Shown here in pieces: positions 13,789 through 18,312 of a stretch of 64,000 bases of DNA. The position numbers were made by a program, and so were the translations under genes. The stretch comes from a virus. A model generated the notes under the pieces. That model searched no databases and was not told the DNA's origin. It saw only the letters and a list, made by a program, of their open reading frames with translations. How positions within the stretch are numbered: the stretch's first letter is position 1; every line of letters starts with the position of its first letter. The stretch spans positions 13,156 to 77,155 of IMG/VR virus record IMGVR_UViG_3300009506_000014; one strand, 5' to 3'.

Positions 13789-14165
13789 CTTATTATCACT
13801 TCCAATCCTATATATTTTCTATACATACGATTTACATTGTTGACTTGTTGTACTGTGTATTTTCTCTTCTTTGTCATGGCATGGATGAAAGCAAGCTCGG
13901 TCGCTCCAAGTCTTTTTTTATGCTCATCAAATATTTCCTGTGCCCTCATGTGACATTTCATTTGTGTCATTTTGGCCTGTGCTGCTTTTGGGGAATGTTC
14001 CTGTTTTATTTTTTTGCACTGTGGACAGCCGGGGTCATCATTTTCTTTTCCTCTCCATCCATATCTCCTGCCACAATCAGGACATTTTTTATCCCAAAAG
14101 CCATAACCTGTCATGTCATTTGTATCTTGGTTTTCTTTTGATTTCGCAAGCTTCTTCGATTTCAT
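13782..14165 (-). CDS. zinc-ribbon protein
   Basis: CPDC...CPQC. Confidence 0.55.
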   Translation of the reverse strand: MKSKKLAKSKENQDTNDMTGYGFWDKKCPDCGRRYGWRGKENDDPGCPQCKKIKQEHSPKAAQAKMTQMKCHMRAQEIFDEHKKRLGATELAFIHAMTKKRKYTVQQVNNVNRMYRKYIGLEVIIRW

Positions 14166-15237
14166 TCCAAACTCCTTCAGTTATTTTTTGTAGTTTTCTT
14201 TCGTGTCCCTTCTTTTCAATATAATCAACCAAAGCCTTCATTGTCATTTTCTTTTTGAATTCCTTGGCTTTAATTTTCTGCCCGGACATCTTCCAATGCT
14301 TTTCATCAATAAGAAATTCTATCATAGATGTTACGTCATCAATTCCGTAGGATGGAAATATAGGGACAGATACTCTTCTATCCTTTCCTGTCACTCGTGT
14401 TCTTTTGACATCAATCTGTACCTGTGTTCCAACTGAACGCTTTTTGCCCCTTATCTGTTTTTTTATTTTGCCTTGGGGTGATGTCCATATTTCTATAGTG
14501 GCATAGTATTTCAAAGCCCATCCCCCGGAACGTGTCTTTTTTGCAAACGATAGTTTGTTGATATTGTCACGTGTTTGATTAATAACAATAAGGATAGAGC
14601 CAGATTTGCGAAGGGGTGTAAGAAGTCTCCGCAAATTTGCCGAATTGATTTTAGCCTTACCATCGCCATAAGAGCCGGTGACATCCTTTCCTTTCTGATA
14701 GGCATCCTTACGCTCTTCAAACTTATCAGTTTCCTGCTCCGATGTCAAGGAGTCCATTGAATCCAGAATATAGATAAATGGTTGTTCCTCTTTTAAGGCC
14801 GTGTCAACATGATAGTAAAAGGTTTCAATCGAATCTGAGAAAACAGCTTCCCCATCACCATCATAGCTCGGTGGCTCTATCCTATCTTTGACAGCTTTAC
14901 CGAAAAACTTCTCAATGTCCATCAATGCCCCATCTTCAGCGTTGTCATATATCATCCGGTAATTGTCAAAGTATTTGTTGATACCTGCTTCAGCAAGGCA
15001 TGTCAAAGCCAAGAAAGTTTTGCCACTATCAGAGTCACCAACAAGAAAGTAATACTTGCCCTTTCCGTATCCAAAGCGTGACTTTCCTGTGCAAGCAAGA
15101 TTTAACATAGTGCTGCCTGTACTCAAAAACCGTGTTGACATCCGTGTGTGTTTCGGTTTATTTCTTTTGAGTATCTTTTCTATGTCTCTTTCTGTTATGT
15201 CGGTTTTTCTTTTTTTCTTTTTCTTTGACATCGTCAC
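14116..15237 (-). CDS. recA: RecA/UvsX-like recombinase
   Basis: LSTGS, GDSDSGKT, ILDSMDSL, INQTR, SGGWALKYYA. Confidence 0.9.
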   Translation of the reverse strand: MTMSKKKKKRKTDITERDIEKILKRNKPKHTRMSTRFLSTGSTMLNLACTGKSRFGYGKGKYYFLVGDSDSGKTFLALTCLAEAGINKYFDNYRMIYDNAEDGALMDIEKFFGKAVKDRIEPPSYDGDGEAVFSDSIETFYYHVDTALKEEQPFIYILDSMDSLTSEQETDKFEERKDAYQKGKDVTGSYGDGKAKINSANLRRLLTPLRKSGSILIVINQTRDNINKLSFAKKTRSGGWALKYYATIEIWTSPQGKIKKQIRGKKRSVGTQVQIDVKRTRVTGKDRRVSVPIFPSYGIDDVTSMIEFLIDEKHWKMSGQKIKAKEFKKKMTMKALVDYIEKKGHERKLQKITEGVWNEIEEACEIKRKPRYK

Positions 15238-15336
15238 AGTAACTCCAATCTGGACAATCCATACATTGCTTTAGCTTATCAGTATCAACACCAAAAATAC
15301 CGTCACGTGGGCACACATCACCAAATGACAGTGTTT

Positions 15337-16662
15337 CTACTTTTTTCCTTTCTTGCTCTTACCCCCTTTCTTTTTCTTATCCGATTTCTTGCTGGATGAC
15401 TTCTTGTCCTTGGACTTCTTATTGCCTTTTCTCTTGTTCGACTTATCAGGGATATCATCGTCGTCGTCATCCGGTTCAAAATCGTCGTCGTCATCGTTGT
15501 CATCATCATCGTCGTCGTCATCGTTGTCATCATCATCGTCATCGGCGTCATTGTCATCATCGTCGTCGTCATCATCATCATCATCGTCGTCGTCATCGTC
15601 ATCGTCTTTTTTCTTCTTTGACTTTGATGACTTCTTTGATTTCGATTTCTTCTTGTCATCATCATCGTCATCGTCATCATCGTCATCATCGTCATCATCG
15701 TTGTCGTCATCATCATCATCGGCGTCATTGTCATCATCGTCGTCGTCATCATCATCATCGGCGTCATCGTCATCATCATCATCATCGGCGTCATCGTCAT
15801 CGTCTTTTTTCTTCTTTGACTTTGATGACTTCTTTGATTTCGATTTCTTCTTGTCATCATCATCGTCATCGTCATCATCATCGTCATCATTATCTTGACT
15901 TTCAACGATTTCAAGGAATTCCTTTTTCAATTCCTTGTAGTCTGGTTCGATGAGAAGAGCATCAAGGTCGTGAGCCATTTCAAGCATTTCTTCCTCATCA
16001 TAAGGTTCTTTGCGTGACTTGAAGTTGATATCGGTGACTTCCAAGAATGGCTGTCTACCAATTTTCTTTTCTTCAAGCAGGAGTTTCAAAGTAGAGCCAT
16101 TTTCGGCATCGGCAAATTCCCGAAAGTTGTCATCTTCATCAGCATTAGATATACGACTTGCCAAGAGCTTCCCAAAATTGTGATAGGAAATATCCCAAAC
16201 GTGACATGGACGCCGTTTGGTTTTCTTATCGGGCTTGTCGGCATGGTCAACAACATTCCACAACTGACGATGTTTTGTGTATAGTGACTTGAAGAATTCA
16301 TCATCGGCATCCGGGTCACGTGCCATTTTGTCACGATGGTCGCAAATTGGACACTTCCCTTTTTCAAAACTTTGCCTTGCACAGACTACGTATTTCTTAT
16401 TGTTTACAGGGCCGATGACATGCACCCAATAAGAACGCACACAGGCTTTGTCCCCCTTTTCCCCGTCCGGGTTATATCCCTTGATAATATAACTCAGGAT
16501 GTCAATTCTTACTTTGCCTTCCTTCGGGTCAAACATTTTGACACCTTCAGGCAGAGCAAGCGTTGTACTCTGTGCCCCGGAGAGACATCTATCAACCATA
16601 CGGTCAACAAATGATGCAGAGCTTTTTTTCTTTTTCTTTTTGTCTTTACTCTTTTTCGACAT
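15337..16662 (-). CDS. gp32-like single-stranded DNA-binding protein with a very long Asp/Lys-rich tail
   Basis: YWVH...VVC...CPICD Zn motif; position next to RecA; acidic tail. Confidence 0.7.
   Translation of the reverse strand: MSKKSKDKKKKKKSSASFVDRMVDRCLSGAQSTTLALPEGVKMFDPKEGKVRIDILSYIIKGYNPDGEKGDKACVRSYWVHVIGPVNNKKYVVCARQSFEKGKCPICDHRDKMARDPDADDEFFKSLYTKHRQLWNVVDHADKPDKKTKRRPCHVWDISYHNFGKLLASRISNADEDDNFREFADAENGSTLKLLLEEKKIGRQPFLEVTDINFKSRKEPYDEEEMLEMAHDLDALLIEPDYKELKKEFLEIVESQDNDDDDDDDDDDDDKKKSKSKKSSKSKKKKDDDDDADDDDDDDDADDDDDDDDDDNDADDDDDDNDDDDDDDDDDDDDDDKKKSKSKKSSKSKKKKDDDDDDDDDDDDDDDDDDNDADDDDDDNDDDDDDDDNDDDDDFEPDDDDDDIPDKSNKRKGNKKSKDKKSSSKKSDKKKKGGKSKKGKK
15470..15895. repeat. (GAY)n poly-Asp tracts with a 198-bp duplicated unit
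   Basis: KKKSKSKKSSKSKKKK block present twice (about 15602 and 15800). Confidence 0.9.
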
Positions 16663-16788: not shown

Positions 16789-17301
16789 TTAAGCATTTTT
16801 CTTTTTTCGTTTCTTGGCTTTGAAAGCTCTGCTTGCCAATGTCTCGTCAACAAGTTTGCTCATATCCCCCGGTGTATAAGGGACAGAATAATAAGATTGA
16901 CCATGCAACTTGATGGCATTCTCAATCATATCTTTACGTTGGTATAGGGCACTGATAGCAATAGATAACATCCTATATATACTTGCTGCCTTGTGGTAAT
17001 CATCCAATGCCTCTTGGTATAAGGGACGCAATTGAACAGCATGAGAAACAGTTGTATCAGTGACTTTATCAATGCCATACCTCTCAGGGTCTTTCCTTAT
17101 CTTTGTTGACAGTTTAGCTTCCACCTTTTTCAACTGAGCCTTGGCATCATTCATGTCATCCTCTGCTGCTCTTTGCTGTGACGCATAGTGCAGGAACAGT
17201 TTTGGCTGGACAATGCACTCATCGACTAATTCGTTAGGGTCGATTTCAAGCAACGGCCTAAGCTCTTTTTCTGATTTCATTGTAATTTTAGTTTTCTTCA
17301 T
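16789..17301 (-). CDS. helical protein, possibly a UvsY-like recombination mediator
   Basis: LEIDPNELVDE..QP..F..YA start; helical; near SSB and RecA. Confidence 0.45.
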   Translation of the reverse strand: MKKTKITMKSEKELRPLLEIDPNELVDECIVQPKLFLHYASQQRAAEDDMNDAKAQLKKVEAKLSTKIRKDPERYGIDKVTDTTVSHAVQLRPLYQEALDDYHKAASIYRMLSIAISALYQRKDMIENAIKLHGQSYYSVPYTPGDMSKLVDETLASRAFKAKKRKKKNA

Positions 17302-17355: not shown

Positions 17356-18312
17356 TTATTCGTTATTGAATATTATACGAAAACATGCTGCCGAAAGCCC
17401 TGCATTGCTTGAATAAAAGAAAGTGTCCGAAAATTCATCAATTACTTTGTAAGCTCTTTTAACAACTTGGGGACGTTTTGGATTCAATAGAATTTTGTTT
17501 GCGTATGATAGAGCTATCTGTCTTAGTATCTCTACCTCTTCCTTTGTGATATCACTAAGCATAGAAGCAACCTTTTTCCATGTCACTATAGGTTTGGATT
17601 TGTTGTCATCAAATACCAGTGTTCTCACAATGTCAATAGCTGCCGCCCGAACATGCTCTTCCTCTATGGCTTCCATCATTTCATCCTCTGTCTCCAAGTC
17701 TTTAACTTGATTCAAAATGACAAGAGCCTGCCTTGGTGAGCCGTCCGACGCCTCAATGATTTTGTTGATTAGTCTGTCAGCATTCTTGAATTTAAGTGAC
17801 GCTTTATATATCATCTTATTAATCACCTTGAACATATCAGAGTCACTCAATGGTTTGACAATAAGCTCAGTGCTTCTCGTGATTATAGCTCTGTCCATCT
17901 TTTCTTTGTGTGTTGTGCAAAGCATAAAGTAAACATGCTCCGGGGTATCTTCAAGTAGTTTGAAAGCTGCACTCTGAGCGTCACCAGTGAGCTTGTGACA
18001 CTCATCAATTACAAATACTCGGATATCACCTTTGAATGGAGCTTGTTCAACTTTGGATTCGATAGCCCTGATGTCATTGACTCCCCTTTTACTTGCTGCA
18101 TTAATTTCTTCGTAGTCAATAGCAGCACAGCCGAGTTTCTTCGATACAATCCTTGCCAGTGTTGTCTTGCCACAACCCGAAGGCCCGGTAAAAAGAATGG
18201 TATGAGGGACTTGATTTTTCTTCACCATTGCTTTTAGCTTCTTGACAGTTTGTGGCTGTCCAATGACATCCGAGAATTTCTTTGGTCTGTATTTTTTGTA
18301 AAGCTCCTTCAT
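17356..18312 (-). CDS. dnaX: clamp loader AAA+ ATPase (DnaX gamma/tau-like)
   Basis: LYKKYRPKKFSDVIGQ, GPSGCGKTT, IDECH. Confidence 0.9.
   Translation of the reverse strand: MKELYKKYRPKKFSDVIGQPQTVKKLKAMVKKNQVPHTILFTGPSGCGKTTLARIVSKKLGCAAIDYEEINAASKRGVNDIRAIESKVEQAPFKGDIRVFVIDECHKLTGDAQSAAFKLLEDTPEHVYFMLCTTHKEKMDRAIITRSTELIVKPLSDSDMFKVINKMIYKASLKFKNADRLINKIIEASDGSPRQALVILNQVKDLETEDEMMEAIEEEHVRAAAIDIVRTLVFDDNKSKPIVTWKKVASMLSDITKEEVEILRQIALSYANKILLNPKRPQVVKRAYKVIDEFSDTFFYSSNAGLSAACFRIIFNNE

Follow-up and report, generated by a model that had tools for sequence, protein, structure and literature searches.

In an uncultured 77-kb phage genome from sediment, one gene for a gp32-like single-stranded DNA-binding protein (SSB) probably makes two isoforms, by programmed −1 recoding at the heptamer A_AAA_AAG. 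(All positions refer to the window, which is the 64,000-nucleotide stretch of this genome that we analyzed.) The preliminary description of this DNA had proposed that a programmed −1 frameshift adds a four-cysteine (Cys4) domain to the SSB, and this proposal is supported by homologs of the Cys4 module and by a conserved −1 layout in 13 other loci. Taken together, the conserved layout, the phase of the A-runs, the missing start codons, and the third-position bias strongly support programmed −1 recoding, which is most likely ribosomal in the window. We infer that the shift there is ribosomal and not transcriptional, since the window has a run of A6G instead of A9.

Under the proposed mechanism, most ribosomes would stop at the adjacent TAG and release the 441-aa SSB with its Lys-rich tip. 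At the two Lys codons, a fraction would slip back by a single base, in tandem or in the P site while the stop codon waits in the A site. The slipped ribosomes would read GTA next and would add VETLSFGDV, the Cys4 module of about 30 residues, and a basic tail, to give a product of about 501 aa whose predicted junction peptide is ...SKKGKK-VETLSFGDVCPR. The slip would determine how much SSB with the module is made relative to plain SSB, and the module probably serves as an element that contacts DNA or a partner protein.

The SSB gene and its −1 frame

By its family profile, its His/Cys3 site, and its acidic C-terminal region, the window SSB is a gp32-like phage SSB. It matches the "single strand DNA binding protein" family of PHROGs (phrog_1192, E = 3.9e-07). 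A search of Pfam with the window SSB itself gave no match, while a homolog (P0010, E = 1.1e-36 versus the window SSB) matches the gp32 family (PF08804) at 35.7 bits (the cut-off is 26.8). In the alignment of SSBs, H81, C104, and C107 are invariant, a Cys at about position 94 is also present, and the poly-Asp tail follows. In the window, the core with the His/Cys3 zinc site is followed by a long tail of poly-Asp, which is interrupted by two KKKSKSKK inserts, and the protein ends in a Lys-rich tip (...KKKKGGKSKKGKK, then the stop). A sequence search of the PDB with the SSB alignment gave only acidic low-complexity matches (such as glycinin and nucleophosmin), and the SSB/UvsX region had no match in a collection of cultured phages, by either blastn or tblastn. 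We found no tRNA genes in the window.

The SSB ORF ends with GGA AAA AAG TAG (Table 1). The heptamer that abuts the stop and the 60-codon −1 continuation with the spacing C-x15-C-x2-C-x5-C, both of which were in the preliminary description, hold at every coordinate: the −1 frame reads VETLSFGDVCPRDGIFGVDTDKLKQCMDCPDWSYCDDVKEKEKKKNRHNRKRHRKDTQKK from 15340 to 15161 on the minus strand, and its stop is at 15160-15158. Only 22 nt are shared by the 0 and −1 frames (15358-15337, if the 0-frame TAG is counted in full), and this overlap has the heptamer at its 3' end. Because a TAA closes the −1 frame on the upstream side, any shift is confined to these 22 nt. The longer form had also been said to overlap recA, and the −1 ORF does run into the start of a UvsX-like gene of the RecA family. 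This gene starts at GTG 15237 or ATG 15231, and its Shine-Dalgarno (SD) sequence (TGGAG) falls within the Trp-Ser codons of the module. In relatives, the protein mostly stops 1-15 residues past the last Cys, and a few distant loci have longer ends, of up to about 27 residues. The Lys/Arg-rich continuation in the window is therefore probably incidental.

Table 1. Features of the SSB region, in window coordinates
Feature	Position	Strand	Remarks
gp32-like SSB, 0-frame ORF	15337..16662	minus	441 aa; ORF list and phrog_1192 match
SD-like AGGGGGT	15367-15361	minus	possible stimulator, 14 nt before the heptamer
Upstream TAA	15361-15359	minus	closes the −1 frame on the upstream side
Slippery heptamer A_AAA_AAG	15346-15340	minus	X_XXY_YYZ phase of the SSB frame, (GG)A AAA AAG
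0-frame stop TAG	15339-15337	minus	directly 3' of the heptamer ("shifty stop" layout)
Linker VETLSFGDV	15314..15340	minus	−1 frame; includes GTG 15316-15314, which codes for the Val before Cys1
Predicted hairpin	15295..15336	minus	arms aaacactgtca (15336-15326) and tgacggtattt (15305-15295); a few nt after the heptamer
Cys4 module	15227..15313	minus	−1 frame; CPRDGIFGVDTDKLKQCMDCPDWSYCDDV; homolog of the module at the C-terminus of many gp32-like SSBs
Lys/Arg-rich continuation	15158..15226	minus	−1 frame; KEKEKKKNRHNRKRHRKDTQKK plus TAA; overlaps the start of the UvsX-like gene
UvsX-like RecA-family recombinase	14116..15237	minus	same frame as the SSB; Pfam RecA, 5.1e-15; phrog_97 (UvsX-like), 1.9e-33

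The heptamer alone is weak evidence, since a frameshift mutation would also be likeliest where a Lys-rich tail has a run of A. The genome does not avoid A_AAA_AAG, which occurs in frame 16 times in 72 kb of coding sequence, and the motif may not be very shifty by itself in this host.

The −1 layout is genomic and not a slip of the assembly. Contigs from two sediment samples (X1 and X2, of which X1 may be the source) cover 15340-15346 and have A6 with no gaps; this comparison is at the level of contigs, where minor A7 variants would not show, and X3 and X4 miss the slip site. Also, the genome has 32 other runs of A7-A9, mostly inside intact long ORFs. Together, these results rule out an A7 run that lost a base during assembly.

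The Cys4 module and the conservation of the −1 layout

Comparison with its relatives identifies the module as a bona fide C-terminal domain of SSBs. In about 60 non-redundant relatives that we fetched, the module is in frame at the C-terminus of the SSB and covalently part of it (carriers include L002, L004, P0001, P0002, P0004, P0005, P0010, and most of L008-L110). We built a hidden Markov model from the modules of 59 relatives, leaving out the window, and compared it to the 77-kb genome, translated in all six frames. There was exactly one match, at 15161-15358 of the window on the minus strand (46.7 bits, E = 2.6e-13). All 11 of the columns that are invariant in the first module alignment are intact in the window (a later alignment has 60 sequences). 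More broadly, the module is present in 343 representative proteins, and the best 150 of these 343 are mostly 300-450 aa. A search of MAG contigs gave just two matches, both with the module in frame, and no clue to the host. Many other SSB relatives do not have the module (L001, L003/L005, P0003, P0006-P0009, and P0011).

The four cysteines presumably bind zinc. The AF2 model of the module has a pLDDT of 89.9, and Foldseek (against the PDB) and VIA-align wide gave no structural match to it. Pfam and PHROGs gave no family for the 60-aa −1 peptide, and Pfam gave nothing for other module-bearing proteins, except for gp32 in P0010. The Cys4 module is found in hundreds of phage proteins, yet it has neither a Pfam family nor a structural match.

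In 14 distinct loci, the module lies in the −1 frame behind a run of A6G, A7, or A9. These are the window and 13 others (L083, L011, L016, L037, L046, L060, L067, L080, L084, L086, L096, L098, and L107). According to the preliminary description, homologs could either keep the heptamer and the stop or have the Cys4 domain in frame, and we saw both. L083 has the same layout as the window: the 12-mer GGAAAAAAGTAG, which includes the slip site and the stop, is identical in the two loci, although the UvsX proteins of the two share just 58% identity. The stop also abuts the A-run in L037, L067, and L060. The run starts at the third position of a 0-frame codon (the X_XXY_YYZ phase) in 13 of the 14 loci, and this phase is strict at the A7 and A6G sites (6/6). 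The +1 type was found in just one contig (L008=L047), with a run of A10. A tree places the nine complete −1 loci on at least four or five deeply separated lineages (branch lengths, 0.4-0.9); counted over all of the −1 loci together with the window, there are at least five. (The tree gives no support either way for a sister relation between the window and L083.) On this comparison, the −1 layout is old and its phase is conserved.

Codon-level differences indicate that purifying selection acts on the module in those lineages that have it out of frame. Between the window and L083, 18 of the 30 residues of the module are the same, and 12 of those 18 have different codons. At positions 1, 2, and 3 of the module-frame codons, these two loci have 10, 7, and 23 nucleotide differences. 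The corresponding counts are 3, 4, and 20 for L067 and L060, and 5, 1, and 13 for L084 and L098.

We also considered the signals around the slip site. For frameshift sites of this type, the stimulators to look for are an SD within the gene at about 10-14 nt upstream, a stable structure at 5-9 nt downstream, or both. The preliminary description had likened them to the stimulators of dnaX, and the SD-like AGGGGGT and both arms of the stem are indeed where it placed them; their role as stimulators in the window is only suggestive. The hairpin (−18.9 kcal/mol) is only marginally better than shuffled sequences (z = −2.07), and with another choice of flanking sequence and mononucleotide shuffles, it has −15.2 kcal/mol and z = −0.6. 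L083 has AAGGGGAAGGGA at a similar distance upstream of its heptamer and a stronger hairpin (−24.3 kcal/mol, z = −1.8), 9 nt past the heptamer. The host-type SD, AAGGAG or AAAGGA, precedes most genes of this phage. At the A9 loci, we found neither an SD-like element nor a downstream hairpin; z-scores for downstream structure were around 0, and we rejected a stimulatory hairpin common to these loci.

Alternatives to the proposed ribosomal frameshift

If recoding occurred in the transcript or in the DNA instead, then the RNA polymerase might stutter and add an A to some mRNAs, or the phage might have reversible A6 and A7 variants, and normal translation would give the long form. We consider this unlikely. 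It does fit with the A9 runs (or A9G, in L107) at 7 of the 14 −1 loci, as bacterial RNA polymerases slip on runs of this length (for example in Thermus dnaX and in IS elements). It also fits with the lack of downstream structure at the A9 loci, and one clade does differ in its DNA, with A9 (in frame) or A10 (contig L008=L047). However, the window and L083 have only A6 and then G, which is short for transcriptional slippage, and the strict phase of the A7 and A6G sites matters to ribosomes but not to polymerases. The contigs from both samples have only A6, and we saw no A10 in-frame member in the −1 clades with A9.

Another alternative to the ribosomal shift is that the module is a separate small protein of 52 aa (MCPRDG...) that starts at GTG 15316, perhaps with ribosomes that terminate at the SSB stop, 21 nt upstream, and then reinitiate. 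The GTG is directly before Cys1 and has GGTGAT just upstream; the TGA stop of L067 and L060 shares bases with an ATG (ATGA), which is a classical layout for coupling; and gene callers gave ORFs of this kind, of 34-36 aa (P0018 and P0040). But the GTG aligns with a conserved Val whose codon is GTT in L083 (where the linker is VVQGV), and it is not preceded at 6-9 nt by an SD of the AGGAG type, the spacing that is typical of nearly all genes of this phage. Furthermore, the open stretch before Cys1 has no start codon (ATG, GTG, or TTG) in 11 of the 14 −1 loci. In 8 of the 14, Cys1 comes before the 0-frame stop, and a whole module could not result from reinitiation there. The covalent link to the SSB in about 60 relatives argues against a separate protein as well. 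The preliminary description had found no convincing start for the −1 frame, and we agree that initiation at this GTG is very unlikely.

Least likely is a recent inactivating deletion (A7 to A6) in the phage population, with the module unmade and its decay yet to come: homopolymers in Lys-rich tails are hot spots for indels, and the many relatives that do not have the module suggest that it is dispensable in some lineages, but L083 keeps the identical 12-mer and frame relation despite its divergence, the −1 state is found again in at least five lineages, with the module under purifying selection, and every invariant residue of the module is intact in the window.

Relation to known recoding systems

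A close parallel to the proposed frameshift is E. coli dnaX (tau/gamma), where A_AAA_AAG also lies in a gene for a replication protein and gives two isoforms that differ by a C-terminal interaction region. The proposed stimulators are of the same kind, namely an upstream SD-like element and a downstream hairpin, and in the window they are only possible ones. However, the shift truncates the dnaX product (gamma is the shifted, shorter form), while it would extend the SSB. Other differences are that the 0-frame stop abuts the heptamer in the window, that the SD-like element is at 14 nt instead of 10 nt, that the hairpin is weak, and that the gene families are unrelated. T7 gene 10A/10B and lambda G/GT are also similar: a −1 slip near the 0-frame stop of a phage gene adds a C-terminal extension to a minority of the product and fixes the stoichiometry of the short and long forms. 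Those are genes for capsid or tail assembly, with the heptamers G_GUU_UUC and G_GGA_AAG, whereas here the gene would be a replication/recombination SSB and the extension a Cys4 module. OrfAB of IS3/IS911 likewise uses A_AAA_AAG, with an upstream SD-like element and a downstream structure (again only possible stimulators in the window), and it fuses two frames into one protein, as proposed here; but it is a transposase whose long downstream frame also has its own biology, instead of a 30-residue module that is startless in most relatives.

As for the SSB itself, T4 gp32 (PF08804) has an OB-fold (which we presume for the window SSB), a zinc site of the His/Cys3 type, and a C-terminal acidic region, and its gene, too, lies among genes for replication and recombination (clamp loader, UvsY-like, UvsX-like, and FEN). 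Unlike the window gene, T4 gene 32 has translational autoregulation but no recoding, and it has no Lys-rich stretch and Cys4 module past the acidic tail.

SSBs are treated as single-product genes, and their C-terminal tips organize the partners for replication, recombination, and repair. If our reading is correct, a frameshift that chooses between a Lys-rich end and a zinc module would be a translational layer on this organization, and the catalogue of recoding events would gain a new gene family. Among the papers that we searched, none reported a frameshift in a phage SSB, although this absence is not proof.

A broader and much more tentative idea is that poly-A recoding at the junction of SSB tail and Cys4 module is a two-way dosage device across the family. 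The −1 lineages (A6G, A7, or A9) would make a minor long form, and the L012 clade, where the A9 run is in phase and the module is in frame, would produce a short form as the minor one (...KKKRK and then a stop). Either way, recoding would set the ratio of plain SSB to SSB with a partner-recruiting zinc module. If so, this would be the SSB counterpart of tau/gamma, which is not known to have been described for any SSB.

Gene callers split off the module or drop it. For example, it appears as the short ORFs P0018 and P0040, and some SSBs (such as P0003, P0006, and P0008) are called without a module and end in runs of Lys. Annotation pipelines for phages should therefore join both frames.

The Cys4 module and its SSB

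As judged from its sequence, the peptide encoded in the -1 frame after the window SSB is a real homologous module. We built an HMM from 59 non-redundant modules, with the window's own left out, and it had just one match in the six-frame translation of the whole genome (E = 2.6e-13). All 11 of the invariant columns in our first alignment are kept in the window module. In an alignment of 60 modules, with the pattern C-x15-C-x2-C-x5-C, five columns (C, G, C, C, and C) are invariant, and the P, F, D, and W columns are nearly so. The preliminary description had raised the question of homologs with the domain in frame, and these exist: SSBs that are about 40% identical end with it, reading K-rich...CPGGGTFGKDTDELxECxDCPxWDECDDA*. 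When we searched 1.84 billion representatives with a profile, we found 343 module-bearing proteins, and among the top 150 matches listed, most are SSBs of 300-450 aa. The AF2 model of the module (pLDDT 89.9) has two helices and a short beta-turn; we found no structural match to this model in PDB and no Pfam family for the module. We can only infer that the module acts as a partner or DNA contact.

The phage is from a marine-sediment metagenome, and its genome is a single contig of 77,155 bp, most of which is covered by the window. The probable slip site lies within a minus-strand replication and recombination module (see table). The SSB matches phrog_1192 (E = 3.9e-07), and its homolog P0010 is above the curated cut-off for Pfam gp32. 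The SSB core retains a His/Cys3 site; it is followed by a very long poly-Asp tail, and the end of the protein is Lys-rich. No relative of this SSB was found in the cultured-phage collection. The acidic tail includes a direct repeat that encodes DKKKSKSKKSSKSKKKKDDDD, with copies ~198 nt apart. The poly-Asp tract mixes GAT and GAC codons, and phantom ORFs open in its other frames and on the plus strand.

Coordinates of features in the window (all on the minus strand)
Feature	Position	Remark
Clamp loader	17356-18312	
UvsY-like protein	16789-17301	
SSB	15337-16662	441 aa
Direct repeat in acidic tail	~15595-15660 and ~15790-15855	
TAA in -1 frame	15361-15359	
HMM match to module	15161-15358	
Heptamer A_AAA_AAG	15346-15340	
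GTG	15316	Val codon
End of -1 ORF	15158	
SD of UvsX-like gene, TGGAG	15245-15249	
Start of UvsX-like gene	15231-15237	
UvsX-like recombinase	14116-15237	
Zinc-ribbon protein		same replication/recombination module
5'-3' exonuclease		same replication/recombination module
A9 run	29138	

The frame of the module in related loci

Using the module alignment, we scanned contigs from viruses and metagenomes and identified 94 loci; a scan with SSB cores added 8 more. At most of the scanned loci, the module is in frame with the SSB. At 13 further distinct loci (14 with the window), it is in the -1 frame directly after the SSB ORF. L083 has the window's 12-mer, GGA AAA AAG TAG. The corresponding sites at the other loci are TC A AAA AAA AAT G (L011, L016, L084, L086, L096, and L098), TCA AAA AAA TGA (L067 and L060), A7 runs (L046 and L080), GGT AAA AAA AAA TAA (L037), or CCA AAA AAA AAG AAA TAG (L107). 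In L107 (3990-4290), the extension past the site is 85 codons long, lacks a start codon, and contains two DnaJ-like CxxCxGxG motifs as well as the module. Such zinc motifs are also found in the SSB tails of L006 and L007 and in P0039. A single contig (L008=L047) is of the +1 type, with A10, and its near-identical relatives have A9 and the module in frame.

The run begins at the third position of a 0-frame codon (the X_XXY_YYZ phase) in 13 of the 14 -1 loci, counting the window, and this phase is seen at all 6 of the A7 and A6G sites. In 11 of the 14 loci, the -1 frame contains no ATG, GTG, or TTG from its upstream stop to the first Cys. In 8 of the 14, the first Cys comes before the 0-frame stop, and a complete module could thus not arise there by termination-reinitiation.

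We placed the SSB cores on a tree, where the nine complete -1 loci are spread over a minimum of four or five deep lineages, all within one well-supported clade and with terminal branch lengths of 0.4-0.9. The window is syntenic with L083, and UvsX identity between the two is only 58%. In all four pairs that we compared, nucleotide differences in the module pile up at third positions of its own frame. For the window and L083, there are 10, 7, and 23 differences at codon positions 1, 2, and 3, and 18 of 30 residues are the same (12 of those with different codons). The corresponding counts are 3, 4, and 20 for L067/L060; 5, 1, and 13 for L084/L098; and 9, 6, and 22 for L096/L098. This bias indicates that the module is translated and under selection in those lineages in which the SSB is in another frame, which requires recoding.

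An assembly error as the source of the -1 layout was rejected. Contigs from two samples (runs X1, possibly the source, and X2) both span the A6 run, where an indel had been a concern, and have no gaps or differences (at the contig level). Also, the genome has 32 other A7-A9 runs, most of them inside intact long ORFs, and its coding density is 93%. The genome's sole A9 run is in a 338-aa ORF, 16 codons from its end, and the RBS of the next gene follows shortly after.

How the long form might be made

The preliminary description proposed a programmed -1 shift that adds a Cys4 domain to the SSB, and the comparative and selection data support this. The elements it listed are all present: the heptamer in GGA AAA AAG TAG at the SSB's end, the SD-like AGGGGGT 14 nt before it, both arms of a downstream stem, and a -1 ORF of 60 codons that overlaps the start of the UvsX-like gene. 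An upstream TAA closes the -1 frame, so any shift is confined to the 22 nt in which the two frames overlap, with the heptamer and TAG at the 3' end.

The most likely route would be a -1 ribosomal slip on A_AAA_AAG, either tandem or in the P site, where the 0-frame stop immediately follows (in the window and L083). We consider ribosomal frameshifting at the window heptamer to be quite probable. A_AAA_AAG is the shift site of dnaX and IS911, and stops that adjoin slippery runs ("shifty stops") reportedly raise shifting. In dnaX, an internal SD acts on the shift, and AGGGGGT could act likewise, as strong AAGGAG-type SDs precede this phage's genes. A spacing of 14 nt is at the edge of the working range. 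The hairpin predicted after the window heptamer, the other candidate stimulator, is weak, and L083 has a better one (-24.3 kcal/mol, 9 nt past its heptamer). No structure was seen at the A9 loci; there, the length of the run may be enough, or transcriptional slippage may be involved. Across the genome, A_AAA_AAG is found 16 times in the -1-permissive phase, versus 21 and 9 times in the other two phases (Lys codons are AAA 1152 times and AAG 962 times), so the bare heptamer is not under strong counter-selection, and we are cautious about assuming high efficiency.

Alternatively, length variation in the transcript or the DNA could make the long form. This is plausible for the A9 loci and less plausible for A6G sites, and we give it a slim chance at the window site. 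Independent initiation at the GTG before the first Cys is unlikely: it is a conserved Val codon without a proper SD, and the relatives lack a start codon there. A recent dead mutation is contradicted by the layout of L083 and by the selection on the module.

If the ribosome does shift at the heptamer, then translation of the long form would run across the ribosome-binding site of UvsX. The SD of the UvsX-like gene comprises the module's invariant Trp codon and the next codon, so the recombinase gene's start is embedded in the SSB's -1 extension. The window's -1 frame continues for 22 codons past the module, across this start. This tail is probably incidental, because relatives mostly end 1-15 residues past the last Cys, although a few distant loci reach ~27.

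Frameshifting by -1 is itself a well-known kind of mechanism. In a full-text literature search, we found no paper on a recoded phage SSB gene, and SSB is not among the phage genes with known frameshifts that the PRFect paper lists. What appears to be undescribed so far is the gene family involved, the module that is appended, and how broadly the arrangement is conserved.

Other arrangements

In one clade (L012, L014, L015, L051-L059, L062, and L063), an in-phase A9 run, TC A AAA AAA AAC, precedes the module by 8 codons and is in frame with it (for example, L015 at ~2470-2500). A -1 slip at this run would yield a short form ending in KKKRK*, which L008=L047 (A10 at 1938-1947) encodes directly. 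In L020, an in-frame TAG (2270-2272) separates the SSB core from the acidic tail and Cys4 module, and the reading frame does not change across it (...TTKKKSS*KSSKDEDE...). Stop-codon readthrough, a TAG-recoded phage, and a nonsense mutation are all candidate explanations; if real, this would be another way of making two isoforms by recoding.

The module is also present in other small phage proteins, sometimes as two copies. Among five non-SSB carriers without a Pfam match (P0012, P0159, P0053, P0142, and P0042), it is doubled in some small proteins, N-terminal in a 235-aa protein, or beside a hydrophobic segment.
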